From: Parcubacteria group bacterium 21-54-25
GTDB taxonomy: Bacteria; Patescibacteriota; Minisyncoccia; Phycocordibacterales; Phycocordibacteraceae
Assembly: GCA_002255585.1 (NCBI GenBank)
Contig: NCBJ01000005.1
Location: 1,066 to 65,065 of the forward strand
DNA: 64,000 nucleotides
Direction of reading: 5' to 3'
The position numbers were made by a program, and so were the translations under genes. This document shows positions 8,958 to 55,249 of the stretch, piece by piece. The notes under the pieces are model-generated. The model ran no database searches, was not told where the DNA came from, and saw nothing but the letters and a program-made list of their open reading frames with translations. Position 1 is the first letter of the stretch, and each line of letters opens with the position of its first letter.

Positions 8958-8971
8958 GCAAAGGGACAGCA

Positions 8972-10246: not shown

Positions 10247-10260
10247 GTTTTTCGGTCTTT

Positions 10261-10298
10261 GCGCCCCTTCGCTTCGCGTTGGGGCGCTCTTTGTTTCC
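10261..10298 (+). terminator. Intrinsic terminator
   Basis: GCGCCCC-loop-GGGGCGC then TCTTTGTTTCC. Confidence 0.55.
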
Positions 10299-10322
10299 TA
10301 TATTTGATACAATCACTCCCAC

Positions 10323-12047: not shown

Positions 12048-12064
12048 TACCGCGCACGAATCCG

Positions 12065-12128
12065 CACAGCAGAAAAAGTGACCACTCCGGGGCGTTTGCC
12101 CAAGTCTTAGTCACTTTTTCTGCTGTGC
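12065..12128. repeat. Perfect 18-bp inverted repeat (stem) with 28-nt loop between recJ and rnhA
   Basis: GCACAGCAGAAAAAGTGA ... TCACTTTTTCTGCTGTGC. Confidence 0.7.
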
Positions 12129-12171
12129 AGGGTTTGCGAAACGCCCGTCATCGCACTGGTATACTGCACGC

Positions 12172-12591
12172 ATGCAATTCACGATTCATGCTGACGGCGG
12201 CGCGCGGGGGAACCCAGGCCCCGCCGGCGCCGGCGCGGTCATCCGTGACGCGGGCGGCAGCATCGTCGCTTCAGTCTCTAAATTTCTTGGACACCGCACC
12301 AACAACTTTGCTGAATACGAAGCAATCATACTTGCCTTTGAGCAACTTGCGAACCTCGTGCCGGAAAAGAAGCGCGTACAGGTACAGGCGATCGTAAAAA
12401 TGGACAGCGAACTCGTCGTCAAGCAAATGCGTGGCGAGTACAAAGTAAAGCACCCCGTTTTGAAACAGCAGCAGGCGAAACTCAAGGAACGTATCGCAAC
12501 GTTTGGAGAAGTGGCGTTCATGCACGTGCCACGCGCGCAAAACAAAGACGCTGACTTCCTCGCAAACGAAGCGATGGACGCTGCCGAGTAA
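12172..12591 (+). CDS. rnhA: Ribonuclease HI family protein
   Basis: DGGARGNPGPAGAGAV, NNFAEYEA, D...QNKDAD catalytic pattern of type 1 RNase H; TATACT 6 nt before ATG. Confidence 0.75.
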   Translation: MQFTIHADGGARGNPGPAGAGAVIRDAGGSIVASVSKFLGHRTNNFAEYEAIILAFEQLANLVPEKKRVQVQAIVKMDSELVVKQMRGEYKVKHPVLKQQQAKLKERIATFGEVAFMHVPRAQNKDADFLANEAMDAAE

Positions 12592-12600
12592 CTACGTTCC

Positions 12601-14112
12601 ATGCCGCTCTCCACAACCGGACGCGTGTTTTTTCTCGCGGCCGCTACTTTTGCGCTTGGCATTTTCATACGATCGCTCTACGTGCTTCCGATTTCGTTTG
12701 TCGCCATTGCCGCTCTTGCTGCAGTCGCGGCACTTGCGACATGGGTTGTTGCGCGGCAGCCAGTGTATATATTTTTTGGTGTGGCACTCGCCGCCCTTAC
12801 ATTTGGTGTGGTGCGCGTTTCAGTTACTCCACAAGAGCTGCCAAGCGCATTTGCAGACGAACTTGATACGGATGTGTCGCTCACTGGTACGGTTTCGGCG
12901 GCGCCGGACATTCGCGAAAGCAGTCAGCGCATCACCATTACGGTCTCAAAAGACAACGCGACGACGCGCGTGCTCGCCGTCGTCTCGCTCGGCACACCCG
13001 TGTCCTATGGTGAGCGCGTTACTGTGCGCGGGAAACTAACATCGCCACAATCGTTTGCCACCGACTATGGTCGCACTTTTCGTTACGATCGCTATCTTGC
13101 CGCCACTGGTGTCTTTGCCATCATGCCGCACGCGCTACTCACTGAAGTTGCACCGCCTTATGGTGTGTGGGCGCACGTGTATGGTGCGCTCATTGGAGTG
13201 AAGCGGTCATTTCTGCATGCGCTTGGGCTGGCGCTCCCGGAGCCGGCAGCTTCGCTTGCCGGCGGGCTTGTTGCGGGAGGCACCGAGGGACTTGGCGCGT
13301 CGCTCACGAGTGACTTCGTGCGTTCAGGCCTCATCCACATCGTCGTCCTTTCCGGCTACAACGTCATGATCGTTGCTGAGGCTGTGCTGTTCGCTCTTTC
13401 GTTTCTTGCGCGGCGCGCAGCTGCGGGCATCGCCGCGCTGGTCATCGGCGCGTTTGTGCTTGCCGCTGGTGCTGGCGCAGCAAGTATTCGCGCCGGGCTC
13501 ATGGCAGGCTTTGCGCTTTTGGCACGCGCAACCGGCCGTACGTACGACGTAACGCGCGCGCTCGTTGTAGCCGCGCTCCTGATGCTTCTTTGGAATCCAC
13601 TTCTTCTTGCATTTAGTCTCGGTTTCGATTTATCAATCATTGCGACACTCGGTCTCATCCTTGGCGTGCCGCTCATCGAACCGCACCTCGCTTTCATTAA
13701 AAATTTATTTCTGCGCGAAACCGCGGCCGCGACTATCACTGCACAAATTGCGGTGTTGCCGCTTCTGCTTTACGCCAACGGCCTCTTTTCGATTGTTGCG
13801 CTTCCTGCAAACCTGCTCGTGTTACCGCTCGTGCCGCTTGCAATGGCGACTTCAGCATTTGCCGGCCTTGTGGGTGTTGTGCTGCCGGCGCTTGCGCCTG
13901 CGTCAGCGCTTCCGGCATACGCGCTTTTAAGCTACATCGCGTGGGTAGTGCACGCCGCCGCCACCTTGCCGCTTGCGACGGTTGCAGTGCCGAGTTTCTC
14001 GTTTGTGTTTGTCATTCTTGCCTACGCGTTCCTCGCGCTCCCCGTGTACCGCCTCGCAAAAAATAAAAAACCGGCGCTCGCGAACACGAGCGCCAGCCAA
14101 CTCCTCCAGTAA
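12601..14112 (+). CDS. comEC: ComEC/Rec2 DNA-uptake channel: OB-fold (DUF4131) + competence membrane domain, no MBL domain
   Basis: N-terminal TM pair, then the OB-fold segment (starts VSLTGTVSAAPDIRESSQRITITVS, ends GRTFRYDRYLAATGVFA) and the competence-domain signature GLVAGGTEGLGASLTSDFVRSGLIHIVVLSGYNV; ends after last TM helix. Confidence 0.7.
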   Translation: MPLSTTGRVFFLAAATFALGIFIRSLYVLPISFVAIAALAAVAALATWVVARQPVYIFFGVALAALTFGVVRVSVTPQELPSAFADELDTDVSLTGTVSAAPDIRESSQRITITVSKDNATTRVLAVVSLGTPVSYGERVTVRGKLTSPQSFATDYGRTFRYDRYLAATGVFAIMPHALLTEVAPPYGVWAHVYGALIGVKRSFLHALGLALPEPAASLAGGLVAGGTEGLGASLTSDFVRSGLIHIVVLSGYNVMIVAEAVLFALSFLARRAAAGIAALVIGAFVLAAGAGAASIRAGLMAGFALLARATGRTYDVTRALVVAALLMLLWNPLLLAFSLGFDLSIIATLGLILGVPLIEPHLAFIKNLFLRETAAATITAQIAVLPLLLYANGLFSIVALPANLLVLPLVPLAMATSAFAGLVGVVLPALAPASALPAYALLSYIAWVVHAAATLPLATVAVPSFSFVFVILAYAFLALPVYRLAKNKKPALANTSASQLLQ

Positions 14113-20281: not shown

Positions 20282-20326
20282 ATCTCTTTGGAAACTCGAA
20301 CGCGTGCTCAAGTTCCCAAAAGATAG
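20282..20326. repeat. 45-bp perfect direct repeat, copy 1 (internal dyad around ACGCGT)
   Basis: ATCTCTTTGGAAACTCGAACGCGTGCTCAAGTTCCCAAAAGATAG identical to 20957-21001. Confidence 0.9.
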
Positions 20327-20397: not shown

Positions 20398-20931
20398 CTA
20401 TACTAGTTTCGCCGTCGAGAGGCCCATACCGAGGGCCTCCTCGACAGTAATTTTTTTTCCATGCAGTCCGGGCGTTGCCTGGACGCTGCTCGGGCGGACC
20501 GGCTCGCCCGGGTGCACGGTGAAGACGATCTCGCGACCGTCTTCCTCCCCGACGATGAGGACAAGGAAGTCAACATCGTCACCCCGGACGCCCTCTACAA
20601 CCGCCGACACCCGGCCGGTGCCCTTACGGTCGTCGAGGGTGACGGTGGTTCCGGCGGGTAACTCCGCCAGAGGCTTGACCCCGAGGAGCCCGCGAAGGCT
20701 CCGCGTCCGAAAGGCCGTGCAGCCCTCCGAAATAGCCGGATGGGAGTACGCCTCCCACTCCGCCTCAAGGAGCGCTTGCTCCAACTCCTCAGGGGTGCTC
20801 ACACCTAAAATCACCGACCCGACCCCGCCGCCAGGAAGACGCTGCTCGAGCGTCTTCCGCCAATATTGTGCGTCTACCACCTTGGTAAACGCAATTGCGG
20901 TTACTACTACCTTCTTTCCTTTCATGTTCAT
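20398..20931 (-). CDS. Hypothetical protein (177 aa, acidic)
   Basis: GAGAGGTG SD 4 nt before ATG 20931; flanked by the two 45-bp repeat copies. Confidence 0.5.
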   Translation of the reverse strand: MNMKGKKVVVTAIAFTKVVDAQYWRKTLEQRLPGGGVGSVILGVSTPEELEQALLEAEWEAYSHPAISEGCTAFRTRSLRGLLGVKPLAELPAGTTVTLDDRKGTGRVSAVVEGVRGDDVDFLVLIVGEEDGREIVFTVHPGEPVRPSSVQATPGLHGKKITVEEALGMGLSTAKLV

Positions 20932-20956: not shown

Positions 20957-21001
20957 ATCTCTTTGGAAACTCGAACGCGTGCTCAAGTTCCCAAAAGATA
21001 G
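20957..21001. repeat. 45-bp perfect direct repeat, copy 2
   Basis: Identical to 20282-20326; 25 bp upstream of the 20931 start. Confidence 0.9.
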
Positions 21002-34729: not shown

Positions 34730-34768
34730 GCAAACCACCCGCGCGCCACAGGCGCGCGGGTGGTTTGC
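34730..34768. repeat. Perfect 18-bp-stem hairpin between rpsG and PEBP gene
   Basis: GCAAACCACCCGCGCGCC-aca-GGCGCGCGGGTGGTTTGC, abuts TATACT 6 nt before ATG 34781. Confidence 0.7.
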
Positions 34769-34780
34769 TATACTGCGCCT

Positions 34781-35263
34781 ATGACACTCACCCTCGCCAG
34801 CACTGCGTTTGCTCACGCGGGACGTATTCCAAAGAAATATACGTGCGATGGCGAAAACGTGTCTCCACCGCTCACCATTTCGGGGGTGCCAAAGGGCACC
34901 GTGTCACTTGCGCTCACCATGGAGGATCCCGACATCCCACAGTTTGCAAAGGAGAAATTTGGCATTGATGTTTTTGACCACTGGACGCTCTTTACTATTC
35001 CGCCGAGCACAACTGAGATAGCTGAAGACGCTTCCTCGGTGGGGAAGGAGGGCGTCACTACGAGCGGGAAGACCGGCTACACCGGCCCGTGTCCGCCGCC
35101 CGATCACGAACCCAAAGAGCACCGCTACTTTTTCCGTCTCTATGCGCTTGATGCCGAGCTCTCGCTTGTCGATGGCGTGACCAAGGACCGCGTGCTTGCC
35201 GCTATAAAAGGGCACGTCCTTGCCACCACAGAGCTCATGGGTACCTACACCCGCGCAGTGTGA
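34781..35263 (+). CDS. YbhB/YbcL (PEBP/Raf-kinase-inhibitor-like) family protein
   Basis: KYTCDGENVSPPL...DPDIP...GYTGPCPP...HRYFFRLYALD PEBP signatures; GTG 34760 alternative start. Confidence 0.75.
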   Translation: MTLTLASTAFAHAGRIPKKYTCDGENVSPPLTISGVPKGTVSLALTMEDPDIPQFAKEKFGIDVFDHWTLFTIPPSTTEIAEDASSVGKEGVTTSGKTGYTGPCPPPDHEPKEHRYFFRLYALDAELSLVDGVTKDRVLAAIKGHVLATTELMGTYTRAV

Positions 35264-35422
35264 GGGACGTCAGACGTTCCTCCCTCATTTGCCTGTCCAC
35301 GTGTTTGTGCTGTGTACGAGAAACTGCGTACGTTTTATCCACACGACAGCGCCCCGGCGCGCCATTTGTGTGCTTTACTAAACTAAACATGTCTCCTTTA
35401 CACATGCGCTACTCATCGCAAC

Positions 35423-37168
35423 ATGTACTCGCAACAACTGCTTGATTACATTAGTGCACAACGAAAAGCGGGTGCCGAGCGCGGCGTTATAGTCGAGACA
35501 CTGCGTACTGCTGGGTGGAGTGAAAACGATATCAACGCCGCTCTCGTTGCAGAGGGGGTGCCAGCACCACCCGCACCGGTGCCAACGCTACCGCCCGAAC
35601 AAGCGCCAGCAGCAACCGCCGTGGGAGCGGGCTCTCCGACACCAGAGGCAAACACACATCGTTCGTGGGCGCGTCTACTTACCATAGGGGTTTCGGTGCT
35701 TGTTCTTGTTGTGCTGGTTGCAGGCGTTGCCTATGCTTATGTAGAGAAGATAGGACCGTTCTCAAGCCCTCCGTACACTGAAAACAATCTGTTCTCTGGA
35801 CTACTCACCAAGGCGGCACTCATACGCACATCCACGTATGAAGCATCCTCAACGCTTATCATGGAGCCGAGAGAGGCAGACGCGAAGCCGTTCACCTATC
35901 AGCCACCAAGCAAACAACTCATTGCAGAGTACACAAACGATGCGCAGCGCGCACAATCTGTGTCAAATATCCTTATGCAGCTTCAGTATGCAACACGCTA
36001 CCCAGCATCGTTACTACAGCTACAGAGACAGAACAACTCGCACCTCTACAATCCTGTATTTTCGATATCGATAAATGATCCCGTAACAAACAAACCCTAC
36101 GACTACACGCTTACTAACGGCGGTAAGAATTTTGCCCTGAGCGTTACGTTTCAAACGAGTGATGCGATACAGGCCATTCAGAGAGAATATGGATATTCAG
36201 CCACCAACACGCCCATTACGGGACAAACGGTCACGTTTACCAAAAATAGCCCCACATACTACTACCTCTCATCGACCCCTCCCAAACCGTTTTTTGTACA
36301 GATGCAAGATATGGCGAGCTACTTTCCTCCGCAATTAGCTGTCGCGTTTTCTTTAGGTGCCACAGTGGATTGGGCACACAGCGCAGACTGGAAATTCAAT
36401 CTTTCCGCATCGGGAGACTTTGGTGATCTCACGTATAAAGTTGGTGGAGATGCCCTAAAGAAAGATGGCGTGTACTACCTGCGCATCAACGACATTCCTG
36501 GCATAGTCGGCATGCTCGCCGACTACAAAGGAAAGTGGATTAAGTACGATCCAGCAACGGCGACGACAACAGCTACCGCATACCCCATTTCAGAATTGTC
36601 GAGCATTACATCCCAGCTCCCACAGGCGGAGAAAGACTACAAGAAGCAGCGGGCTGCCTATACCAAACTGCTGCTCATGGCGGCAAACATAGCTGACAGC
36701 GTGCACCTTATGCATTTCAAAACACCGCCTGTGGTCGACCACGTCAACGGCCGCACGCTCTATCGGTACGAGTTAGTACTCAATAAGGATGCGATAGTAC
36801 CGTTTTATACAAAACTGCTTGCCGCGGCAAAGCAAGACCCTGATCTTGCCAACGCGCCGTTCGTTACCGACACGGGCCTCATTAATTACCTGAAGAGTCC
36901 TGAGTTTGACAGCGTTTTTGCGTACTATAACGAGAATACCGCACTTACGTTGTGGGTTGACCCGCAAGGATTCCCCGCGCAGCTTAGTTACAGTATTCGC
37001 TTTGTACCGCCAGACACCGCCACCGCGCTGAAAGATAAACAAGCACGTCTCACGTTTACGTTGAACATGTCGCGCATTAATCAGCCAGTAACCATTCAGG
37101 CCCCGTCCGGAGCCAAGACCGTCGAGCAGCTTGTCGGGACAAGCACGCCTGGCGGCATAGGTCTATAG
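35423..37168 (+). CDS. Membrane protein: ~45-aa N-terminal LRTAGW module, Pro/Ala linker, one TM, ~480-aa extracytoplasmic domain
   Basis: MYSQQLLDYISAQRKAGAERGVIVETLRTAGWSENDINAALVAEGVPAPP paralogous to N-terminus of 51090 gene. Confidence 0.55.
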   Translation: MYSQQLLDYISAQRKAGAERGVIVETLRTAGWSENDINAALVAEGVPAPPAPVPTLPPEQAPAATAVGAGSPTPEANTHRSWARLLTIGVSVLVLVVLVAGVAYAYVEKIGPFSSPPYTENNLFSGLLTKAALIRTSTYEASSTLIMEPREADAKPFTYQPPSKQLIAEYTNDAQRAQSVSNILMQLQYATRYPASLLQLQRQNNSHLYNPVFSISINDPVTNKPYDYTLTNGGKNFALSVTFQTSDAIQAIQREYGYSATNTPITGQTVTFTKNSPTYYYLSSTPPKPFFVQMQDMASYFPPQLAVAFSLGATVDWAHSADWKFNLSASGDFGDLTYKVGGDALKKDGVYYLRINDIPGIVGMLADYKGKWIKYDPATATTTATAYPISELSSITSQLPQAEKDYKKQRAAYTKLLLMAANIADSVHLMHFKTPPVVDHVNGRTLYRYELVLNKDAIVPFYTKLLAAAKQDPDLANAPFVTDTGLINYLKSPEFDSVFAYYNENTALTLWVDPQGFPAQLSYSIRFVPPDTATALKDKQARLTFTLNMSRINQPVTIQAPSGAKTVEQLVGTSTPGGIGL

Positions 37169-39883: not shown

Positions 39884-40792
39884 TTATGACGCAATACGCA
39901 CGCGCTCAAGCTCGGGGAGCAGTTTCTCATAAAGCCGCTCAATCAGCTGCAGAAGGACAAGCACCTCGTCGCGATTTTGTTTGAGTACCCCAAGCTTAAA
40001 TACATACGTTTTCACGCCGTAGCACTCGAAGCCAAATTCTTTGTATCCTTCCATAAGCATTGCCATAGCATCGGGTTGCAGTATTTCAAGTGCCTCTATC
40101 TCCTCGCCTTGCGGCACATACACGGAAAATTCTTTATTGAAATCACCCTCCACGGTGAGCGGCTTCGTATCTGACGGTTTCCAAACAAGCGCTGGGTCGA
40201 TCGTCATAAGGGACGTATGCGGTCGGATGAGAAGATGAGGCAGTTGATGCTGTACCTCAATCTCACCGACAATGTATTGTATTTGTTCTTGATACCTGCC
40301 CAAGCCAACGATGAACGAGTAGTTATACAGCCGTAACGCAGCATCTTTGTATGTTCCAGAAAGCACATGCGAAAGTGCTCTGTCATGTCCGCGCTCAAAA
40401 AAGCTGCCTGATACTGTTCCGGTAGATGCAGAGGGCGCATACGTAAACCCAAGCGAGTCAGCTAATTCGGTGAAAAACAATTTCTGCATTCTGAAATACA
40501 CACGCAAATATAAGACGATGGGAATGAGTAGCGGAAGAAGAAAGAGCAGTAACAGAATAACTGTCTCGGTGTTCGTATCTGCTATGGCGGCTAGATCATT
40601 TGCCGAAGCTACCCACCAAGCCGCGCTTTCAAGCAGAAGCATAGCTGCTACAGCCATGAATGTGTGCATGGGGCGCCGCTGCAACAAATAGCGCCAAGTG
40701 CTGCGCTGTACGCTAAGCACGGGCTCGTCCTGTTTGCGGGCGCCTGTATTTTTTGGTGGCGACGCGGACGGGACGCGAGACGACATATCCAT
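39884..40792 (-). CDS. Hypothetical membrane protein (302 aa, two TM near N-terminus)
   Basis: AAAGGA 3 nt before ATG 40792; inserted between fusA and tuf. Confidence 0.5.
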   Translation of the reverse strand: MDMSSRVPSASPPKNTGARKQDEPVLSVQRSTWRYLLQRRPMHTFMAVAAMLLLESAAWWVASANDLAAIADTNTETVILLLLFLLPLLIPIVLYLRVYFRMQKLFFTELADSLGFTYAPSASTGTVSGSFFERGHDRALSHVLSGTYKDAALRLYNYSFIVGLGRYQEQIQYIVGEIEVQHQLPHLLIRPHTSLMTIDPALVWKPSDTKPLTVEGDFNKEFSVYVPQGEEIEALEILQPDAMAMLMEGYKEFGFECYGVKTYVFKLGVLKQNRDEVLVLLQLIERLYEKLLPELERVRIAS

Positions 40793-40917
40793 ATATCCTT
40801 TATAGTAGCAGGTAGCAGCAGAATGCTCCGAGGTGTCGAACCGTGTTGTCCACAGCGACTTCTTGACAAGTACTTGAGCTACGGTGTGGTCACGTTATAC
40901 AAAATAACTCTCTATTC

Positions 40918-43900
40918 ATGAAACAAATTTCTCGCGCGCTCGTGCTCCCTGTGTTGTTCCTTGCTTTTGCCACCCCCGCCTTTGCGGCGACCAACACCCC
41001 GACCGATTACGACATCATGAGTGCCTGTTTTGGCCAAACGCCCACAGCCGGTAGTGTTTGTGCCAAGGCAGATTTCGATGGCGATGGCATCGTTAATATC
41101 GCTGACCTAGCAGCATTCAAGAGTGCCATAAAATACGATATCAATGGTGACGGGGCCGTAGATCTGTCCCCCAACGGCGCGGACGCCGCTGCGCTACAGG
41201 CCTGTTTTGGCCAAACGCCCACGGCCGGTAGTCCGTGTGCTAAAGCCGATCTAAACGGTGACGGGATGGTGAATTTTGCTGACCTAAGCGCGTTTAAGGC
41301 CGCAAGCAAATACGACTTAAACGGCGACGGGGAAATAACGTTCAATAACACGAGCGCGCCGGTCATCACCAATATTGTTAACGACGCAACGCCGAACGTG
41401 AACGTGACGATTTCTGGCACGAACTTCGATCCGGCCTCGAACACCGTTACTATTGGTGGAACAAGTAGGAACTTGCCATCTTTCAACGGGACGAATATCA
41501 ACTTCCAGATGACGGACTTCGGTCTTAGTGCTGGCAGTTATTCAGTACAGGTCACCACTTCAGCTGGTGCAAGTAATGTATATCAGGCGACCATCACGAA
41601 TTCCCCGGCGAGCACGGGTCTCAAAATAGCGCTTTTGCCGACGTCGCCGAACGGCACCACCCTCTTTCAGGGTCAGAGTGGCGCTGATCTCGCGGACTTC
41701 GTGTTCTCGAATCCAAGCTCAGTTCCGATTACTGTGACCAGTCTTGCTTTCAACCGTATCGGCGCTTCGAGCGACTCGGCGATGACAAACGTGTACCTCT
41801 CGCACAGCGGTACGCGCGTGACGGGGTCTAGTGGAGTTTATAATTCCCAATTTTCGTTCACAGATGGGGCGGGCCTCTTCACGGTCCCGGCGGGGGGTAC
41901 GTATTCGGTTTCGGTTCTTTCCGACATCGCGAACAGCGCCTCATCTGGTCAGCAGATCGGCGTGGCACTCGCTTCCGTTGGTTCTTTTGGCGCTATTGAT
42001 CCCTCGGTCAACTTCCCAATTAATGCCGGTTATCAAACAATTTCAACCCAAACACCTGCCCCCGCCATCACCTCCGTCTCGCCTACGAGTGGTTCTACAA
42101 ACACAGCCGTCACTCTCTATGGCACGAACCTTCAAGGGGCCACACAGGTACGGTTCTACAACACAAGCGGACAATTTGTCGCAAGCCAGAACGTTACGTC
42201 CGTTTCCTCTGACGGCACACACGTAACGTTCATTATCTCAGGTGTCTTCATGGGTATGGAGGGCGCAGGTTCATATCAAATAAATGTGCAATCGCCGAAT
42301 GGAACAACCAACAGTGAACCGTTTACCGTGACGTCGGAATCTATCCCCACCATCACCTCCACCAGCGCCAAGGCCGCAGGCACGTTCCAGGCGGATGCTG
42401 GCGGCGGTTTGCAGGTTTTCGGCACTGGTTTTTCCTCCGGTGCAACGGCGTATATCAACGGGGCACCGGTGACGACCACCTATGTCTCAAGTACTGAACT
42501 GGGGGTCAACGTTCCAACCAGCCTCTCTGCTGGCGCGAGCTATCCGATGTATGTTACTGGCGGAGGCGGCACGAGCAACACGGTGCAAATACAAATCTTG
42601 AGCAATCTTGCCAATTACCCGCACATCACCTCCACCAGCGCCAAGGCCGCAGGCACGTTCCAGGCGGATGCTGGTGGTGTCCTACAAATTTCTGGCACGA
42701 ACTTTTCCGGCGCAACAGCGGTATACATTGGCGGAGAACAGGCCACGATTACGAGTAACACCGGGACCTCGATCTTGATCGACGTCCCGAGCAACCTTTC
42801 CGCTGGCGTGAGCTACCCGCTCTTCGTTACCGGTCCTACCACCGGTGTGAGCAACACGGTGCAAATACAGATTTTGAGCGTCTTAAACTCGACCCCCACC
42901 ATCACCTTTGCGCAAGTGCCCGCCGAGAACAACAACGTGCTCCATCCAGGCGAACCAGCACGAGTATTCGGTGCGAACCTTGACCAAGCGGGGTCCATTC
43001 CAGTTGAAGTACGATTTATCGCTGCGGGCGCGACAGTCTACTCCGCTGATGTGCCAGGCACCGTGAACGCCGATGGTACGCAAGTGTCCTTTACGGTTCC
43101 ATCCTTATCGAACGGGACCTACTCACTCCTCGTCTATGCCAGAACATCGTTCGGCACGAATCAGATTTCGGTATCTGTCACAAGTCCGGCTACAGGAAGG
43201 ATCATCCCGTCAACCACGTTTATGAATTTTCACGTCGTACAAGGCCAGAGCAATCCACCGCCGGTCCCTATGACGCTTACGAACGCAGGTTCGGTACCGG
43301 TGGACTACACGCTCAACGTACCTAACCAACCAGCGTGGTTGAACACGAGCTATAGCACCAACACCCTGACGCTTGCCGCGGGCGGTGTCGTGGAGCTTGA
43401 GGCGTCAGTGGACGCCACGCAAGTAAATGCGCCGGGCACATACACGGCAACCCTGGTTGTGTCGGGCAATTTTTCAGGCTCACCGCTCAGCATTCCAGTT
43501 ACCCTAACGATTGATGCGGCACAAAACAGCAGTACGCCAACACCTTCAACTAACGAAAATACCCCACCGACCTCAAATACAAATACGCCAGCTGGCCCGT
43601 TCACCCAAAACCTCTGGCGCGGGCAGCATGGGGAAGAAGTGGTACAGCTGCAACAGCTCCTTAATCGCGACCCGAATACGCAAATTGCGGATTCAGGTCC
43701 CGGCTCGCCAGGTGAAGAAAATGGCTACTATGGCTACCTGACGCAGTCCGCAGTGCAAAATTTCCAGTGCAAGTACAACATCGTTTGTTCTGGCTCGCCT
43801 GACGCCACCGGCTATGGCGTGGTGGGGCCGCAGACGCGCGACGAACTGAACATGCTCTATGACCAGCAGGGCAGTAGCGCAGCAGCGGGTGCGCAGGCGA

Positions 43901-44073
43901 CGAACAATGTTGGCAATTCTAGCGGAACGAACGGTGCGCAAACAAACAACACCACAAGCGCATCCTCGCCCGCACCAACCGCCGCCCAGCTACAGACTCA
44001 ACTCCAGCAACTTTTACAACTTGTGCTCCAGCTCCAACAACAGCTTGCGCGGCAGCAGGCCTCCCCTAACTAA
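40918..44073 (+). CDS. Large secreted protein: signal peptide, two tandem dockerin modules, multiple IPT/TIG-like Ig domains, peptidoglycan-binding (PG_binding_1-like) domain, C-terminal Gln/Leu coiled-coil
   Basis: KADFDGDGIVNIADLAAF...DINGDGAVDL and KADLNGDGMVNFADLSAF...DLNGDGEITF; tandem 91-aa ITSTSAKAAGTFQADAGG repeats; NLWRGQHGEEVVQLQQLLNRD...GYYGYLTQSAVQNFQ. Confidence 0.75.
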   Translation: MKQISRALVLPVLFLAFATPAFAATNTPTDYDIMSACFGQTPTAGSVCAKADFDGDGIVNIADLAAFKSAIKYDINGDGAVDLSPNGADAAALQACFGQTPTAGSPCAKADLNGDGMVNFADLSAFKAASKYDLNGDGEITFNNTSAPVITNIVNDATPNVNVTISGTNFDPASNTVTIGGTSRNLPSFNGTNINFQMTDFGLSAGSYSVQVTTSAGASNVYQATITNSPASTGLKIALLPTSPNGTTLFQGQSGADLADFVFSNPSSVPITVTSLAFNRIGASSDSAMTNVYLSHSGTRVTGSSGVYNSQFSFTDGAGLFTVPAGGTYSVSVLSDIANSASSGQQIGVALASVGSFGAIDPSVNFPINAGYQTISTQTPAPAITSVSPTSGSTNTAVTLYGTNLQGATQVRFYNTSGQFVASQNVTSVSSDGTHVTFIISGVFMGMEGAGSYQINVQSPNGTTNSEPFTVTSESIPTITSTSAKAAGTFQADAGGGLQVFGTGFSSGATAYINGAPVTTTYVSSTELGVNVPTSLSAGASYPMYVTGGGGTSNTVQIQILSNLANYPHITSTSAKAAGTFQADAGGVLQISGTNFSGATAVYIGGEQATITSNTGTSILIDVPSNLSAGVSYPLFVTGPTTGVSNTVQIQILSVLNSTPTITFAQVPAENNNVLHPGEPARVFGANLDQAGSIPVEVRFIAAGATVYSADVPGTVNADGTQVSFTVPSLSNGTYSLLVYARTSFGTNQISVSVTSPATGRIIPSTTFMNFHVVQGQSNPPPVPMTLTNAGSVPVDYTLNVPNQPAWLNTSYSTNTLTLAAGGVVELEASVDATQVNAPGTYTATLVVSGNFSGSPLSIPVTLTIDAAQNSSTPTPSTNENTPPTSNTNTPAGPFTQNLWRGQHGEEVVQLQQLLNRDPNTQIADSGPGSPGEENGYYGYLTQSAVQNFQCKYNIVCSGSPDATGYGVVGPQTRDELNMLYDQQGSSAAAGAQATNNVGNSSGTNGAQTNNTTSASSPAPTAAQLQTQLQQLLQLVLQLQQQLARQQASPN

Positions 44074-46481: not shown

Positions 46482-46509
46482 TTGACAAAATATATTTTCC
46501 GTGTACTAT
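46482..46509 (+). promoter_or_regulatory. Sigma70-type promoter for inserted lipoprotein gene
   Basis: TTGACA-16 nt-TACTAT. Confidence 0.5.
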
Positions 46510-46580
46510 CTGCACCAGACGTTTTTTGTTATCACAATACAGATCTCAGTATCCAAACGAGTACAACGAGGAGGTGCACC

Positions 46581-47891
46581 GTGAAAGCGACACGAAAGAC
46601 AGTAGTTGCAGTACTTATGGTGGTCTCGGCCCTGTCTCTTGCGGCCTGCAAGAGCAGCGGGAACTCGGTGGCGTCAGCGAGTAGTGGCGGGACCCAAACG
46701 CCCACCACTTCGCCATCGCCATCGCCAACTCCGACCCCGTCTCCAGCGGCAACGTATATTTCTGGTTACATCGTCGGAGGCGCACAGACGGGAGTGACGG
46801 TTACCGCCAGTCCCGGGGGTACCGCTGCAACAACCGGCGCAAGCGGGGCTTACACCCTGTCAAACTTGCCGGACGGCACCTACACAATCACTCCATCTGA
46901 CGGGTCGGGAACCGTGTTCTCGCCGGCCAGCAAGACCGTGACGGTGAATGGTGCCGGTGTGGCGGGTGTAAACTTCACCGCACCAACCCCGCCTCTTACC
47001 ACGGGGGACATTCTTTTCCCGTGCCTCTACGCGGTGTGCGTAGAAAACTTGGCGACGGGGACATCGAATGTGCTGCTGCAGAACCCCAGTGTAACGGCGT
47101 GGCAGCCGCTCACGATTGTTCCCATGCGCGTGGGGATTTCGATTGCCTACGATGGGTCAAATCTCGCTGGCCCTTCCTGGGTGTCGTTTCTTCCGGGCAT
47201 GCCGTCGCCGCCGCGGGTGTTCATGAACGGAGGGAACATGACGCCCAATTGCTCCGCCATCACTGACGGCCGAAGCTTCGACACCGCAAGTGTCTCGGGT
47301 GTTGGCGACATAGCGGTCGTAACAGCCCCCTGCTCGGTCCCAGGAGTAGGGAATAAAACGGACATCTTCATCGTTCAGATGGATGGTTCGGGACACTACG
47401 TTCGTGTCACGTCCGATATGGACATCGAGCGATCGCCTGTTTTTGCCGGTATCAACTTGGCAAAGAGTCAGGTGACAGTGCTCTTTGTGGACACCACCAC
47501 GGGCAACATCATGAAGCAAGTGGTGGACGTCTCTTCAACGAGCACCACGACGCTCGTCGGCGCGCCGACCGTCTTTGCGAAGGACGCAGCTGATGACGAT
47601 CGGGCATTATCGGTGAACCTAGACTACACCAAGGTCGCCTTCGTGCAGAAGGTGAACGGATTGAATCACCTCATGGTAGAGGCGACCGCGGGGGGTCCGG
47701 TGACAGATCTCGGCTTGGGAGACAATCCGTACTGGGATCTCGGGGGAAGCAACCTGATTGAGTACTCGTACAACGGCAAACTGTATGCGGTCAAGCCGGA
47801 CGGTACGGGGCGGGTTGCGATACCTGTTCCTGGCAACTTGTCGGTGGCGTCGGGCCCCGCTTGGGTGGTGTTCGCCCCTCCGGGAGGCTAA
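46581..47891 (+). CDS. Lipoprotein with carboxypeptidase-regulatory-like domain and beta-propeller-like C-terminal region
   Basis: GAGGAGGTG SD then GTG 46581; lipobox LSLAAC; YISGYIVGG...GAYTLSNLPDGTYTITPS; track start 46482 rejected. Confidence 0.6.
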   Translation: MKATRKTVVAVLMVVSALSLAACKSSGNSVASASSGGTQTPTTSPSPSPTPTPSPAATYISGYIVGGAQTGVTVTASPGGTAATTGASGAYTLSNLPDGTYTITPSDGSGTVFSPASKTVTVNGAGVAGVNFTAPTPPLTTGDILFPCLYAVCVENLATGTSNVLLQNPSVTAWQPLTIVPMRVGISIAYDGSNLAGPSWVSFLPGMPSPPRVFMNGGNMTPNCSAITDGRSFDTASVSGVGDIAVVTAPCSVPGVGNKTDIFIVQMDGSGHYVRVTSDMDIERSPVFAGINLAKSQVTVLFVDTTTGNIMKQVVDVSSTSTTTLVGAPTVFAKDAADDDRALSVNLDYTKVAFVQKVNGLNHLMVEATAGGPVTDLGLGDNPYWDLGGSNLIEYSYNGKLYAVKPDGTGRVAIPVPGNLSVASGPAWVVFAPPGG

Positions 47892-50027: not shown

Positions 50028-50870
50028 ATGAAAACGTATCGACCAACCACCAAAAGCCGCCGACACATGTCGACCCTGCCTTTCCGCAAGACGCTCTCGG
50101 GCGATAAGCCCACCAAGCAGCTGCTCGCAAGCAAAAAACGCCAGGCGGGGCGGAACGCGTTTGGACGCATTACCACCCGGCACCAGGGAGGCGGGCATAA
50201 GCGCCGCCTACGCGACATTGACTTCACGTACAACAAATTTGACATCCTCGCAACACTCGAGACCATCGAGTATGACCCGTATCGCTCAGCGAACATCGCG
50301 CGCGTGCTCTACGCAGACGGCGAGCGACGTTATGTGCTTGCGCCAAAAGACCTGGGGGTCGGCGATACGTTTACCGTTTCTCGTACCGCACCGGTAAAGG
50401 TGGGAAACCGCTTGCCGCTCGGGAAAATTCCAGTCGGTACGTTTGTGTACAACATCGAGCTTTCGCCAGCTGCCGGCGCACGACTCGCACGCTCAGCAGG
50501 AAACTATGCGCAAGTCGTTGCCCATGACGCAGGGTATGCGCAGGTGAAGCTGCCTTCGACAGAAATACGCAAGATTTCTGATCAGTGTTTCGCGTCTATC
50601 GGTTCAGTGGGTAACGAAGAGCACAGTCTGGTGAATATAGGCAAAGCCGGTCGCGCGCGCTGGATGGGCAAGCGGCCAACTGTTCGCGGATCTGCCATGA
50701 ACCCTGTCGACCACCCGCACGGCGGCGGTGAGGGCAAGCAAGGGCGCGGTCTGCGGCGCGCAAAGACAATGTGGGGTAAGCCCTCTGGCAAGGGCCAGAA
50801 GACACGCCGTCCAAAGAAATTCTCGAACACGTTCATCGTGTCTCGCCGCAAGGTCGGTAAGCGCCGCTAA
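50028..50870 (+). CDS. rplB: 50S ribosomal protein L2
   Basis: [47 protein letters not shown]. Confidence 0.9.
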
Positions 50871-50957
50871 TTTTCAAAATCATTCAGCTCACACACAACC
50901 CGCCAACACACTGGCAGCGTGTATACATGCTGAATGAAGGAAGTCTAACTCCCTTCA

Positions 50958-51014
50958 TTTTATTGATCCCCTGCTTCGTTTCCTGCCGTGAGTAAGGTTA
51001 AACCTTACTCACGG
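50958..51014. repeat. 57-bp repeat element copy 1, contains perfect 14-bp palindrome CCGTGAGTAAGGTT/AACCTTACTCACGG
   Basis: 55/57 identical to 52976-53032. Confidence 0.85.
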
Positions 51015-51089
51015 ATACTACGTATGGATATTCACAAAAACAACCACTGCCACCATTTTCTTTTGTTTGCTCTTGTATACTAACAAGCA

Positions 51090-52352
51090 ATGATTGATCA
51101 ACAGGTGGTTACCTATGTGCGCCAACAGTTTGCAGGTGGAGCTACCACTGATGCAATACAACAAGCTCTTCGCACTGCTGGTTGGAATGATGAATCCATC
51201 CGCGCAGCGCTTGCTGCCGCGCAGGGAGTGCCCGCCGCTCCTATTGCTACAGCCCCTGCACCCACCCCGCAGGCGAGCCACGCGTCGGGTGCGTTCGCGA
51301 AGGCGGGCACCAGCGCGTTCCAAGCACAATATCCGCTTAGCGTGCGCAGGAAGTTCTGGAAGAAACTTTTATCCCAAACTATTGGGTGGGGTATTACCGT
51401 TTTCTTGCCAACCCTCGTTTTGTTCATTGGCGGCCTGATATACAACTTACCAGCGCTCACCTTTACAGGGCTGGTGCTTTTTGTCCCATATTTTGTAGCT
51501 CTCGCTCTTTACGCATGGTATGTGAAGGCGTATATCCGTTTGTATTACTACAACGACAACGAGTCGTTTATTACTATTCGCAAAGGGGTTTTCACTCCGC
51601 AGGAGATCCACGTCCAGTACCCAAAAGTCCAAGATGTATATGTTGATCAGGATTTGATCGATCGCCTGCTTGGCCTCTATGATGTGCACCTCGCGAGCGC
51701 TACCGTAACCTCTGGTATGGAGGCGCATATTGATGGGGTAAACGCCGACATTGCGGGCAGACTCAAGGACGTCCTGCTCTCTCGAGTGCAGGGAAACGCG
51801 CGCTCGTTCCCCGAATCTCCTCAAGCAGGGCCGCAAACTCATCCTACCGAGTCTGCGCAGCCGCGGCCGGGGTTCCATGGGAATATCTCAAACAGCGAAT
51901 ACCCCATTCAAGGAACGTGGCTCACTGGGCGAATCATATCCGCGGTACTTCACGGCATGGTGTGGGGCGTCATCGTTGGTGTTTGGGCTAACTACAACAT
52001 CTCTCTCGGGGTTCTCGTATTTCTGGTCGTGTCGGTGTTTCAGGCAGGGTATGTTCTCATTTGGAAAAAGAATTACCGTTTTCAATTTTTACCAGAATAT
52101 ATTTTGGTACACACGGGCGTCATTAGCTGGTCAGATCGACACATTCCCTACAACACAATCCAAGACGTAAATCTCTCGCAGCCCATTTGGGGTAGAATGT
52201 TTGGTTTTGCGAACGTACGGATCGAGAACGCGACCCAGGGTGGGGTGGGCAGTATTAATATTCCCGGCCAGACGCTTGTCAACGCGGGTGCTATTACCGA
52301 TGCGCTCAAATCTATCATTCTGACCAAAGATTCGTCGCGAACCGGGCTATAA
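51090..52352 (+). CDS. Membrane protein: N-terminal LRTAGW module + TM segments + two bacterial PH (bPH_2/YdbT-like) domains
   Basis: ALRTAGWNDESIRAALAAAQGVPAAP; FLPEYILVHTGVISWSDRHIPYNTIQDVNLSQPIWGRMFGFANVRIE; TATACT 8 nt before ATG. Confidence 0.6.
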   Translation: MIDQQVVTYVRQQFAGGATTDAIQQALRTAGWNDESIRAALAAAQGVPAAPIATAPAPTPQASHASGAFAKAGTSAFQAQYPLSVRRKFWKKLLSQTIGWGITVFLPTLVLFIGGLIYNLPALTFTGLVLFVPYFVALALYAWYVKAYIRLYYYNDNESFITIRKGVFTPQEIHVQYPKVQDVYVDQDLIDRLLGLYDVHLASATVTSGMEAHIDGVNADIAGRLKDVLLSRVQGNARSFPESPQAGPQTHPTESAQPRPGFHGNISNSEYPIQGTWLTGRIISAVLHGMVWGVIVGVWANYNISLGVLVFLVVSVFQAGYVLIWKKNYRFQFLPEYILVHTGVISWSDRHIPYNTIQDVNLSQPIWGRMFGFANVRIENATQGGVGSINIPGQTLVNAGAITDALKSIILTKDSSRTGL

Positions 52353-52361
52353 CCCAACTCA

Positions 52362-52934
52362 TTGCGCATGCCTCAAGGGTTAGTATCAAACGATATCCGA
52401 CAGTACACTAACGGCAGTGTTTCGAGCGAAAATTACCCGATACAGCGCCACCGCCTGCTCGTCGCGTATAGCGGCATCATCCTTCTGTTTGGCACAAGCT
52501 GGGCTTTTCTCGCTTCCATCGCATGGGCTTTCCTGCAGATTATGTTGTCCGCCGCGTTCGGCCTGCATTTTTCGACCAGCATCAACCTGTTTGTCCTCGT
52601 TTTACTTCTTCCGACCAGTATTATTGCCGAGGCCGTATACATTGCCATTGCGATTAAAAACATTCAATTTAAATTTCTCCCAGAGTACCTTGAATTGCGG
52701 GGTGAGGTCATCGGAACGGAAGAAAAGCACATCTTCTACCGGACCATTCAAAACATTGAAGTTTCTCAGGGTATGTTCGAACGCATGCTCGGTATTGCGT
52801 CAGTTGGTATCGAGAACGCGGCACACGGGGTCGGGCCGGAAACGGTTGGACAGGCATATATTCCAGCACAGACCCTCGAAAATGCTCGATCACTTGCCGC
52901 CATGCTCGAAACCCTACGGGTTACGACAATGTAA
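52362..52934 (+). CDS. Membrane protein with single bPH_2 (YdbS-like) domain, paralog of C-terminus of upstream gene
   Basis: FLPEYLELRGEVIGTEEKHIFYRTIQNIEVSQGMFERMLGIASVGIE. Confidence 0.55.
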   Translation: MRMPQGLVSNDIRQYTNGSVSSENYPIQRHRLLVAYSGIILLFGTSWAFLASIAWAFLQIMLSAAFGLHFSTSINLFVLVLLLPTSIIAEAVYIAIAIKNIQFKFLPEYLELRGEVIGTEEKHIFYRTIQNIEVSQGMFERMLGIASVGIENAAHGVGPETVGQAYIPAQTLENARSLAAMLETLRVTTM

Positions 52935-52975
52935 GACTTTGAAGCAAAGCCGCAGTGAGACCGTTCCAGCCGGTA

Positions 52976-53032
52976 TTTTATTGATCCCATGCTTCGTTTC
53001 CTGCCGTGAGTAAGGTTTAACCTTACTCACGG
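52976..53032. repeat. 57-bp repeat element copy 2 (12-bp palindrome)
   Basis: Differs from copy 1 at 2 positions. Confidence 0.85.
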
Positions 53033-53146
53033 TAACCTAGACCTTCCTCACGAGCGTCCCAACGTAATCACCCCGTGCGCTTCCGAGACCACGTACGCAC
53101 AAGTGGCCGTTGACACAATGCCGCTGACACATTACTTTTACAGGCA

Positions 53147-54445
53147 ATGAGGAAATATGTGCTCGTGCTCGCAGTTTTTATATTTTTTGGATATCCTGCA
53201 CTCACACGAGCAGATTCTACGGCTTATTCGCCGCAATGCTATAACCAGAAAATAACGCCAGCACAGGAACAGAGTATTATCAACGGCACAGCCGATACGT
53301 CCACTTCAACCGCAGTACAAGGCGCGCTAGATTCGACGTCATACTCTAATTTCAGCACGACATCTGTTGATGGTTTTGTTCAGCAGAATAACGCGGTGGC
53401 CGGGACGTGTCGTCTTATAAAAAGCATATATAATACTATTTCTATCGATCCCGCACTTCAGGATAGTTATTGGCTTGCTACGCATTTCGGTATTGGTGTC
53501 ACTGTACAATCAGCAACCAAAGACGTGTGCGCACAGTACACCTGTACTGGTATAGAATCTAGCGGCGCCATTGGTCCGCCGGTGGTATACACAAAACATT
53601 CTGAATACATCACAAACATCAGTACCAGTACGACCGTTACCGTTGCCGATTCGCCTGACGACGTCAGCGCACCTCTTACGAGATACGTAGTGCTGGATAA
53701 GGCACATTTTCTTCCGTTGCTGCAAAGCGCTTTTCAAAAAGCGGGCGTCGTTTTCTCGACAACGCAAATACCGTCTCTAACCCTTCACATCTATGATAAA
53801 AATGAAATCGCCGATATTATTCACAATATCGCAACCAAAAATTGGTACGTGGACGTTGGCGGAGACGGTCCCGGCAGACAATTTAGCACCAGCACAGTGA
53901 TGGATACGCTGTATGTGTCACCGTCACGTGGGGACCCTTCTTTTTATGACGTGTACACCGAGAACCTCACCTACGGTAATTATATCTATGGCCCCAAGGG
54001 CGATATCGTTGAAACTCAGTATGCGCCTGTGGATTATGGGAATGACGCGATTCTTACCAGTAAAGACCTGCAGATAAGTTGGGCGCCGTGGGGTCACTGG
54101 TATCTTGATACTATCCCTGTCGTCCCAATCACCAGCCCGCTCGTGTCAGTCCACAACTACTGGATGTTTACCAAGGTGCACGGCCAAATCGTCCTGGCAT
54201 GGGAAAAGAGCGTGTACGGACTCGATGATGGAACAACACGGACAGTCACAAGAAACTCTGCGAATGTGAATATGGCGATGCTGTTTGGCAGTGCGCCGCA
54301 CACTACAACTTCATCCACGAAGGCAAAGCAGAACCCTGTCCACGCGCAAACAGCCACATCATCTGCTACTACGAGCACCACTGCGGCACCTGCACCGCAA
54401 GGATTCTTTGCGCGCATCTGGAGTTGGCTCACGTCGTGGCTCTAG
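53147..54445 (+). CDS. Hypothetical secreted protein (432 aa)
   Basis: Signal MRKYVLVLAVFIFFGYPALTRADS; Thr/Ser-rich. Confidence 0.5.
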   Translation: MRKYVLVLAVFIFFGYPALTRADSTAYSPQCYNQKITPAQEQSIINGTADTSTSTAVQGALDSTSYSNFSTTSVDGFVQQNNAVAGTCRLIKSIYNTISIDPALQDSYWLATHFGIGVTVQSATKDVCAQYTCTGIESSGAIGPPVVYTKHSEYITNISTSTTVTVADSPDDVSAPLTRYVVLDKAHFLPLLQSAFQKAGVVFSTTQIPSLTLHIYDKNEIADIIHNIATKNWYVDVGGDGPGRQFSTSTVMDTLYVSPSRGDPSFYDVYTENLTYGNYIYGPKGDIVETQYAPVDYGNDAILTSKDLQISWAPWGHWYLDTIPVVPITSPLVSVHNYWMFTKVHGQIVLAWEKSVYGLDDGTTRTVTRNSANVNMAMLFGSAPHTTTSSTKAKQNPVHAQTATSSATTSTTAAPAPQGFFARIWSWLTSWL

Positions 54446-54446
54446 C

Positions 54447-54800
54447 ATGCTTATCTACGTCCACCAGTTTCTCAACGCGCTTGTGTTTTCAGCTCTTGTT
54501 GAAGGTGCTGTTGTACTACTATTGTGCCTACTCTTAAGGAAAGGTAGACAAACGATACTTGCGACCATCTCGGTTGCGGTATTTGGGACAATGGGCACTA
54601 TTCCCTATGTATGGTTCGTTTTCCCTACAATTTTCTGGTACTCTGCAAATACCGCACTCTATACTGCCGAAGGCTTCGCGTTTGTTGCTGAGGCACTGCT
54701 CTATAGGTTCGTTGGGAAACTCTCCATGCGCCAAGCCTTTCTTTTCTCACTTCTAGCAAACGCCGCTTCGTATTTTCTCGGGCGTGTATTGTTTGGATAA
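54447..54800 (+). CDS. Small membrane protein (117 aa, 3-4 TM)
   Basis: ATG 54447 one nt after upstream stop; ORF-track 5' part overlaps previous gene. Confidence 0.4.
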   Translation: MLIYVHQFLNALVFSALVEGAVVLLLCLLLRKGRQTILATISVAVFGTMGTIPYVWFVFPTIFWYSANTALYTAEGFAFVAEALLYRFVGKLSMRQAFLFSLLANAASYFLGRVLFG

Positions 54801-54898
54801 TACCGTTGTGTTTTTCGGCTTGAGCTAGGAGGATTGTTGACTCCTTGGTCTGTTTCCTGTACCTTTCTTATATCCCGCCCCGCGGGTTTTAATTTCAT

Positions 54899-55249
54899 AT
54901 GTCCAGATCAATCAAGAAAGGTCCCTACGTAGACCTGAAGCTCATGAGCAAAATCCGCGGCAAGAAGCCGTCGGAGTCTTCGGTTGTAAAAACATGGGCG
55001 CGCGGAAGCCAAATCGCGCCGGAGATGGTCGGATTTACCTTCGGGGTGCACAATGGCAAGCAGCATGTGGAGGTCCTCGTTACCGAGGACATGGTCGGCC
55101 ACCGGCTTGGTGAATTTTCGCCGACCAAGAAATTTGTACGCCATGGTGGCAAGATGCAGAAAGAACTCGAACAGAAGCGTCAGCAAACGGAAATTGCAGC
55201 GGCGAAAGCGGCCAAAGAGCCAGCGGCGACGAAAGTCGCCGGAAAATAG
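54899..55249 (+). CDS. rpsS: 30S ribosomal protein S19 (C-terminal extension)
   Basis: [27 protein letters not shown]. Confidence 0.9.

Follow-up and report, generated by a model that had tools for sequence, protein, structure and literature searches.

A 58-nt composite repeat ending in a perfect palindrome at the rplB-rpsS operon boundary of a Parcubacteria genome

The closest described counterparts of the element reported here are the repetitive extragenic palindromic (REP) sequences and bacterial interspersed mosaic elements (BIMEs), which stabilise upstream mRNA, attenuate transcriptional read-through, bind gyrase and integration host factor (IHF), and mediate duplications. Our subject is a 58-nt direct repeat in Parcubacteria group bacterium 21-54-25, a member of the Patescibacteria (Candidate Phyla Radiation, CPR), located within a 64-kb window (i.e., the whole stretch of contig NCBJ01000005.1 that was analysed; with 9 kb lying further upstream, 73 kb of this genome were covered). 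The repeat lies in the 4,028-nt interval between rplB and rpsS in a gene order that runs tuf, rpsJ, a gene for a 436-aa secreted protein, rplC, rplD, rplW, rplB, four inserted genes, and rpsS, rplV, rpsC onward. The inserted genes encode, as the original prediction had it, two paralogous bPH-domain membrane proteins, a secreted protein and a small membrane protein. We tentatively favour, with a probability of about 0.45, the hypothesis that the 58-mer is a lineage-restricted, REP/BIME-like composite boundary repeat, duplicated via local recombination when gene modules were gained or reshuffled at this boundary.

The repeat had been described as two near-identical 57-bp elements (55/57 identical); it is real, and its full extent is 58 nt, with 56/58 positions identical (97%) and 2018 nt from start to start. 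Both copies end in a palindrome that is indeed perfect (14+1+14; CCGTGAGTAAGGTT-N-AACCTTACTCACGG) and that folds, as single-stranded DNA, with -14.3 kcal/mol (z = -8 to -9). The sole difference within the palindrome is its centre base, A in copy 1 and T in copy 2, which makes the palindrome of copy 2 the exact reverse complement of that of copy 1. The copies follow gene ends, as proposed, starting 86 nt past the rplB stop and 40 nt past the stop of the second bPH gene, and copy 1 starts at the 3' foot of another, terminator-like hairpin (a' in Table 1). The block of identity between the copies ends abruptly at the hairpin feet. The second copy stands in the middle of the interval, where it separates the bPH pair from the secreted/membrane gene pair; that is, what the copies enclose is the bPH pair alone (the first 2 kb), not a 4-kb insertion as originally supposed. 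Neither half of the 58-mer recurs in the window at up to 3 mismatches (0 expected by chance, based on shuffles), neither occurs in the further 9 kb upstream, and Rfam 15 gave no match in the window at gathering thresholds, permissive thresholds returning only generic hairpins far below threshold.

The left 29 nt of the 58-mer hold TTGATC-N10-GTTTCCTG, that is, the -35 element and 17-nt spacer of an rpsS-type promoter, and the parent-like sequence of this half is the upstream half of the rpsS promoter itself (TTGACT-N10-TTTCCTG). The pattern TTGAYY-N10-TTTCCTG occurs three times in the window (both 58-mers and the rpsS promoter), each time on the + strand and within the gap, where ~0.26 occurrences would be expected. 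A position weight matrix (PWM) was trained solely on the upstream halves of the rpsS promoters of relatives, so as to avoid a post hoc motif; among the 128,000 window positions scored, the rpsS promoter came first (27.6 bits) and the 58-mers took the next two ranks (20.0 and 18.5 bits), followed by a next-best score of 14.0 over a background of -25 +/- 8. In the relatives the same matrix found one strong match per locus, the exception being L004 (related loci are numbered L004, L007 and so on), in which a second match is the promoter of the gene inserted in the gap. The promoter half of rpsS (R3) is identical to those of the 58-mers (R1 and R2) at 19/27 positions. With -35 and -10 elements required 16-18 bp apart, the 58-mer does not read as a sigma-70 promoter: the -10 position is occupied by CCGTGA, the start of the palindrome, and hence the left half is a promoter copy without its -10. 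Two other ideas about the repeat were dropped, i.e., a DNA-uptake sequence (the half-site is not over-represented outside hairpins) and an extracytoplasmic function (ECF) sigma promoter on the reverse strand (GGAAAC), which lacks both a fitting -10 and a gene that it could drive.

Homologous palindromes are present in a related genome, a hydrothermal-vent metagenome contig (L013) whose L2 and L3 proteins are 81% and 88% identical to those of the window. This contig carries four of them, with a GGTTWAACC centre and arms GAGTGAGG/GAATGAGG, two in its rplB-rpsS gap and two in its rpsJ-rplC gap. Over the six copies (two from the window and four from L013), 94% of the stem cells pair and 5/14 pairs have changed on both sides. 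In a shuffle control, the observed pairing percentage, number of cells with both-sided change and covariation score were each reached by 0/500 shuffles, and the observed number of pairs with both-sided change by 75/500. A covariance model of the hairpin (model R1), run over the window and ~30 loci (~370 kb), matched only its six training copies; hairpin a' of the window resembles the L013 arm GAATGAGG weakly (covariance-model match, E=0.09). The L013 palindromes form the 3' part of a ~165-nt repeat that flanks the rplC-rplB operon, and the identity between its two copies stops exactly at the 3' foot of a hairpin, as does that of the 58-mer. Each L013 doublet consists of one A-centred and one T-centred palindrome, and those of the rpsJ-rplC doublet are inverted copies of each other down to an asymmetric mismatch, a REPIN-like arrangement (REPINs being inverted doublets of REP sequences).

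Further repeats and palindromes were encountered around these. The ~165-nt repeat of L013 (3780-3976 and 6940-7142; minus strand, which is the gene orientation) comprises an 80-nt conserved block followed by the palindrome doublet; the block holds a promoter-like TTAATA-17-TG.TATACA, so that the doublet could give rise to a small RNA. The gap of this repeat contains other long palindromes as well, and in the rplB-rpsS doublet each palindrome is followed by an extra arm, AACCTTCACTCAC, similar to window positions 53040-53052. A CRISPR-like mini-array in L013 was considered and dropped, its spacers being too short (19-21 nt). L004 has an unrelated palindrome family, with GACTTCGTAAGTC units in direct and inverted orientation at 14-133, 6788-6960 and 7654-7800, each of which precedes a TTGACY-17-TAnnnT promoter; the genes downstream are tuf, the 203-aa gene inserted in the rplB-rpsS gap, and rpsS. 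The near-identical terminators around the bPH gene of L020, entertained as a parallel case of duplicative insertion, were rejected: AAAACCGCCC-GAAA-GGGCGGTTTT is simply a common terminator type, with three occurrences in L020 and another three in L028, which is unrelated. Finally, the window has a second hairpin-containing direct repeat (R45; 45 nt, 100% identical, 20282-20326 and 20957-21001), whose copies flank a single 177-aa gene without recognisable relatives (ORFan; minus strand, 20398-20931). Each R45 copy stands after a terminator-like hairpin and before a gene, folds far better on the sense strand (-9.3 vs. -5.1 kcal/mol), and contains TTGAGC-N10-GTTTCC, reminiscent of the left half of the 58-mer.

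The junction itself is variable. Regions between rplB and rpsS were retrieved from relatives via L2 homologues, and metagenomes were additionally scanned for the conserved rpsS leader; the closest L2 relatives are Paceibacteria/Kaiserbacteria-type Patescibacteria, at no more than 85% identity. A canonical terminator (A-tract, GC stem, T-tract) follows rplB in nearly all relatives examined (~12 loci), and rpsS has a conserved promoter of its own, TTGTTGACTC-N9-TTTCMTG-TAYNNT, plus a leader hairpin, CCCGC-NNN-GCGGG followed by TTTTAATTTC. In L008 the gap between the two genes spans 247 nt and is free of genes; it measures 299, 354 and 370 nt in L014, L015 and L011, respectively; 727 nt in L007, with a 152-aa gene; 732 nt in L013, with many palindromes and no gene; 888 nt in L012; 1,179 nt in L004, with a 203-aa gene; ~1.5 kb in L028 and L020, with DUF3298/HIT genes on the opposite strand; and ~4.08 kb in L026, with six genes. 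The comparison of rplB-rpsS spacing that the original prediction had proposed thus gives a range from 247 nt to ~4 kb with different genes, and the gene content of these gaps is unrelated between relatives. The terminator, the separate rpsS promoter, and the variable length and content of the gap mark rplB|rpsS both as the border between two operons and as a hot spot of gene turnover.

Two observations accompany this picture. The rpsS promoter, as TTGACT-17-TAYNNT with an invariant TTTCMTG before the -10, is strongly kept in L004, L007, L008, L011-L016, L020 and L026, and the leader hairpin, CCCGC-NNN-GCGGG and then UUUUAAUUUC right before the rpsS start (54837-54898 for promoter and leader together), is strongly conserved as well. 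Possible roles of the leader hairpin, which has no match in Rfam, are attenuation, stabilisation of the 5' end and autoregulation. In addition, bPH genes (YdbS/YdbT-like) recur in gaps of the S10 cluster, at 7001-8107 of L020, 7001-8101 of L021 and 10942-11475 of L026, two of these between rpsJ and rplC and one after rplB. The last of them, a 177-aa gene right after rplB, shares 49% identity with the C-terminal half of the 420-aa protein in the window, and the two best full-length homologues of the 420-aa protein (47%) sit between rpsJ and rplC, with other homologues elsewhere. These positions hint at a long-term association of the bPH family with ribosomal operon boundaries in Paceibacteria.

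Putting these elements together, we propose the following course of events. The 58-mer consists of the T-rich 3' foot of the preceding hairpin, a "decapitated" rpsS promoter, and the 29-bp palindrome up to its own 3' foot. The palindrome probably belongs to a small, lineage-restricted family whose members, in one or more related Paceibacteria genomes, are found where transcription units of the ribosomal-protein supercluster meet. At rplB|rpsS, an operon boundary that already existed in the clade and that holds different genes in different lineages, the boundary sequence may have been duplicated by local recombination with breakpoints at the hairpin feet, for which a Campbell-type single crossover and a template switch are candidates. 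The outcome would be three successive units (the bPH pair, the 432/117-aa pair, and rpsS), each behind a copy of the promoter half, with only the rpsS copy complete. The identity of 97% between copies 1 and 2, as opposed to 19/27 with copy 3, suggests one older and one younger duplication. The role of the palindromes would most likely be passive: as RNA they would form very stable stem-loops, marking or protecting the ends of transcripts and lowering read-through between units. At the DNA level the 58-bp direct repeats could permit RecA-type loss or gain of the 2,018-bp bPH module.

Several observations weigh against this hypothesis. There are only two copies within the 73 kb of this genome, and the exact palindrome stem has no match in 185,579 species genomes (a collection that evidently lacks the source organism, as no self-match was recovered), the JGI metagenomes or IMG/VR, so that the notion of a dispersed repeat family draws on a single related genome. 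The palindrome is not at this locus in most of the closest relatives (L004, L007, L008, L011, L015 and L029). The bPH pair may be an older resident rather than an insert, given that in L026 a bPH gene adjoins rplB too, and either module may have been the later arrival; and the -10-like TAACCT that directly follows the palindrome of copy 2 fits a split promoter, discussed below, instead. The three origins offered by the original prediction fare differently in this light. That the repeats are a footprint of insertion is plausible in view of the variable gaps and the abrupt ends of identity at the hairpin feet, against which stand the position of the repeat around only half the interval and the bPH gene of L026; no relative examined shares the same insertion, and only as an exact sequence does the 57-mer occur nowhere else. 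A small palindromic element is favoured by the four L013 homologues, with compensatory changes in their arms, and disfavoured by the lack of dispersed copies in 73 kb. The idea of terminators copied along with a duplicated gene is not supported: the palindromes have no U tract, copy 1 follows rplB and not a bPH gene, and the bPH paralogues, at just 35% identity, are far older than a repeat at 97%.

Alternatively, the palindromes might be selected RNA elements (e.g., terminators or insulators that work independently of a U tract, RNase III-type processing sites, or end-protecting stem-loops) that keep the rplB, bPH and 432-aa transcripts apart, of which one working element was copied. Both copies do have a gene end before them and a promoter-like site after them, the stem has been retained via compensatory changes between the window genome and L013, and the palindromes of the two copies, as exact reverse complements, could pair with each other over all 29 bp at long range around the bPH mRNA; the better fold of R45 on its sense strand points in the same direction. 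However, the U tract is lacking in a genome that uses canonical terminators, the hairpin at 50933-50959 already follows rplB, perfect palindromes carry no strand signal, Rfam offers no match, and the co-duplication of 29 nt of truncated promoter would be left unexplained, so we regard this explanation as unlikely. A different hypothesis sees in the repeats the borders of mobile gene cassettes: by site-specific or hairpin-directed recombination, modules made of a hairpin plus genes would integrate into the rpsS promoter at ...GTTTCCTG|TA..., giving an array of R1, bPH module, R2, 432/117 module and R3 (the rpsS promoter) comparable to an integron or CALIN array (cluster of attC sites lacking an integron integrase) or to tandem tRNA islands, in which the promoter half restores rpsS expression. 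Three direct copies of the promoter half delimiting exactly two modules, the sharp end of identity at the hairpin foot, the differing gap contents among relatives, the identical R45 pair around a single ORFan gene, and the ORFan character and lower third-codon-position GC content (GC3) of the 432/117-aa pair all suit such an array. Yet no recombinase is encoded in the window, the nearest transposase being an rve DDE gene ~2 kb before its start; the palindrome lacks attC hallmarks; the modules comprise two genes with their own promoter-like sites; R3 matches R1 and R2 at only 19/27 positions; there is no phage or plasmid similarity; and the bPH genes are ordinary in Patescibacteria, with no sign of recent transfer, given that they are at most 47% identical to anything else. 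We therefore find mobile cassettes improbable, and have strong doubts about the specific proposal that the gap is an integron-like cassette platform in CPR, with hairpin-tagged modules integrating precisely at the junction of the rpsS spacer (...GTTTCCTG) and the -10 and with R45 (20.3-21.0 kb) as a second example.

It is also conceivable that the 58-mers are split or switchable promoters, in which a -35 element and spacer are parted from their -10 by the AT-centred 29-bp palindrome, are off in B-form DNA and are turned on via cruciform extrusion under supercoiling or via deletion, or in which the palindrome is an operator. Removal of the 29 nt does produce TTGATC-17-TG.TAACCT at copy 2 and TTGATC-16-GATACT at copy 1, matching the promoter format of this genome (TTGnnn-16/17-TG.TAnnnT; found at tuf, rplC, the 436-aa gene, the 432-aa gene and rpsS), and the PWM recognises in the left half part of an rpsS-type promoter. 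The matches to a -10 are weak, though, with chance probabilities of ~1/64 (copy 2) and ~0.2 (copy 1), each inserted unit has a better promoter-like site further downstream (Table 1), the L013 homologues are not joined to such promoter halves, no regulator gene is adjacent, and the extrusion of 14-bp arms is generally inefficient in vivo; this reading is accordingly given very little weight. Lastly, an assembly artefact or a chance repeat might be suspected because the source is a metagenome-assembled genome (MAG). Comparison with two NCBI assemblies, the MAG contig DAICZD010000002.1 (GCA_027311325.1) and GCA_035427565.1, over 21.3 kb and 13.7 kb gave 0 mismatches, shuffles predict 0 matches by chance, and the genes on both sides are intact, which renders either of these scarcely credible.

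Table 1. Features of the rplB-rpsS interval, in window coordinates
Feature	Position	Strand	Remarks and evidence
rplB (ribosomal protein L2)	50028..50870	+	last gene of the rplC-rplD-rplW-rplB unit; Pfam Ribosomal_L2_N/C
Terminator-like hairpin a', AATGAAGGAAG-TCTAA-CTCCCTTCATT, then TTATT	50933..50959	+	hairpin scan, RNA fold
58-mer copy 1	50957..51014	+	50957-50985 T-rich start and truncated rpsS-type promoter; 50986-51014 palindrome, centre A
Extended -10-like motif TG+TATACT	51074..51081	+	9 nt upstream of the ATG of the 420-aa bPH gene
YdbT-like membrane protein, 420 aa	51090..52352	+	two bPH_2 domains; Pfam PF03703, 6e-24
YdbS-like membrane protein, 188 aa (190 aa from TTG 52362)	52368..52934	+	one bPH_2 domain; Pfam, gene call in L001
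58-mer copy 2	52975..53032	+	52975-53003 truncated promoter half; 53004-53032 palindrome, centre T
Third, diverged direct copy of the palindrome right arm, GACCTTCCTCACG vs. AACCTTACTCACG	53040..53052	+	8 nt after copy 2
Putative sigma-70-like promoter TTGACA-17-TACTTT	53110..53138	+	sequence
432-aa secreted-type protein	53147..54445	+	N-terminal signal-like helix; ORFan
117-aa membrane protein	54447..54800	+	translationally coupled to the 432-aa gene; no family match
rpsS promoter TTGACT-17-TACCTT	54837..54865	+	kept in all relatives examined; PWM 27.6 bits
Leader hairpin CCCGC-NNN-GCGGG, then TTTTAATTTC	54874..54886	+	conserved; directly before the rpsS ATG
rpsS (ribosomal protein S19)	54899..55249	+	first gene of the downstream unit; Pfam

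Regarding the inserted genes (Table 1), families were assigned by a Pfam search of the window proteins. Homologues of the 420-aa bPH protein are widespread in Patescibacteria, at identities of 47% or less, and the 188-aa protein is a paralogue of its C-terminal half (35% identical by BLASTP). The 432-aa protein has one weak homologue among 5.8 billion proteins and no match in Pfam, NCBIfam or PADLOC searches; for the inserted proteins as a group, PADLOC and NCBIfam returned nothing except one weak match of transmembrane composition, and no phage or plasmid similarity was found for the 4-kb interval. The GC3 of the bPH pair (0.56) is near-genomic and that of the 432/117-aa pair lower (0.46-0.50). 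A promoter-like site lies downstream of the 58-mer for each inserted unit. The one ahead of the bPH pair (TG.TATACT) is a putative promoter of that pair, which would yield a near-leaderless mRNA, and the TTGACA-17-TACTTT site, judged by its sequence, would drive the 432/117-aa gene pair.

The rplB-rpsS gap is not the only interruption of the str-S10 supercluster in the window, others being found at 34760-37168, 39884-44073 and 46482-47891. The rpsG-fusA junction contains genes for a PEBP protein and for a protein of 581 aa, the fusA-tuf junction genes for a 302-aa protein and for a dockerin-type protein of 1051 aa, and the rpsJ-rplC junction a gene for a 436-469-aa CarboxypepD_reg protein, an insertion that L004 and L008 have as well. 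The gene for the 1051-aa dockerin/TIG-type surface protein has internal tandem-like repeats (125-133 nt, 74-75% identity, 41023-42879). At the other end of the window, genes of type IV pili and competence are clustered at positions 1-14112 (T2SSE ATPase, T2SSF, RecJ, ComEC and a pilin bearing an N_methyl motif), which agrees with the uptake of DNA as part of the CPR lifestyle and with genes being gained often through recombination. The rve-domain (DDE) transposase gene lies ~2 kb upstream of window position 1 (L030, 7237-8115); another assembly of the same organism breaks at this gene, consistent with a repeated insertion sequence (IS) element.

These results bear on how ribosomal gene order is viewed in this group. 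The S10 ribosomal cluster, which is held to be "universal", is divided into separate transcription units in this Paceibacteria clade, and the rpsJ|rplC and rplB|rpsS junctions are tolerated landing pads for lineage-specific membrane and secreted genes, which is relevant wherever the synteny of ribosomal protein genes serves the binning and phylogeny of CPR genomes. The 58-mer would offer a clean example of a boundary sequence (promoter stub plus palindrome) that was copied during remodelling of a gap. If the palindromes were active recombination sites, they would represent a new mechanism of gene capture in organisms with tiny genomes, but this is unlikely on present evidence. Literature searches on integrons or attC sites in Patescibacteria and on interrupted ribosomal operons in CPR yielded nothing relevant.

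Compared with known systems, the palindrome resembles Rho-independent terminators in being a stable stem-loop soon after a stop codon (13-14-bp stems, 86 and 40 nt past the stops) and differs from them in lacking a U tract and in a stem of only 45% GC; its 3' flanks read ATACTACG and TAACCTAG, no T run follows it, and it is absent from the terminator scan, whereas the real terminators of this genome are canonical A-tract/GC-stem/T-tract hairpins. The likeness to integron attC sites and CALIN arrays lies in direct repeats of ~57-60 nt, of palindromic character, that separate modules beside a promoter. However, the R''/R' boxes (RYYYAAC/GTTRRRY) are not at the base of the stem, which is CCGTGAG...CTCACGG, the only GTTRRRY-like string sits at the loop centre, and the stem has no bulges or extrahelical bases; furthermore, the hairpin stands before its module rather than after it, the modules are made up of two genes each and have promoter-like sites of their own, there is no intI, and no integrase, tyrosine recombinase, Y1 transposase or other recombinase is found among the window proteins. 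Islands flanked by attL and attR at tRNA genes or other conserved targets share with this locus direct repeats of 45-60 nt around a module, a repeat that copies part of a functional target (here, a promoter), and a copy beside the target gene that remains functional, but they differ in that the locus has no integrase, modules of only ~2 kb, and a third copy that is diverged (19/27). As with the subterminal hairpins at the two ends of IS200/IS605-type elements with passenger genes (PATEs), the hairpins here are in the same orientation (direct palindromes, 2 kb apart), which is compatible with such an origin but not specific to it, and neither tnpA/tnpB nor other copies 3' of a fixed tetra- or pentanucleotide are present in the window. 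A miniature inverted-repeat transposable element (MITE; 100-600 bp, with terminal inverted repeats and a target-site duplication) does not fit a 29-bp palindrome whose flanks, CCTG|...|ATAC and CCTG|...|TAAC, show no duplication. By their defining features, neither an attC site nor a MITE nor a complete promoter fits the 58-mer, and neither, going by the perfect palindrome and its 5' flank, does an element of REP and its associated tyrosine transposase (RAYT).

The closest resemblance is to the REP/BIME (and REPIN) elements of Proteobacteria, which likewise are short, lineage- or species-specific intergenic palindromes at the ends of transcription units and are often composite units with flanking motifs, and whose inverted doublets have a parallel in the REPIN-like doublets of L013. 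The differences are that only two copies occur in 73 kb here (vs. four in 10 kb in L013), that the palindrome is perfect rather than imperfect, that the 5' flank is CCTG and not GTAG, that no RAYT (Y1 HUH transposase) gene is among the window proteins scanned with Pfam, and that the host belongs to the Patescibacteria (CPR). Taken together, the 58-mer falls in a known and fairly ordinary class, the palindromic intergenic repeats, its unusual feature being the fusion of the palindrome to a truncated copy of the promoter of a neighbouring ribosomal protein gene.

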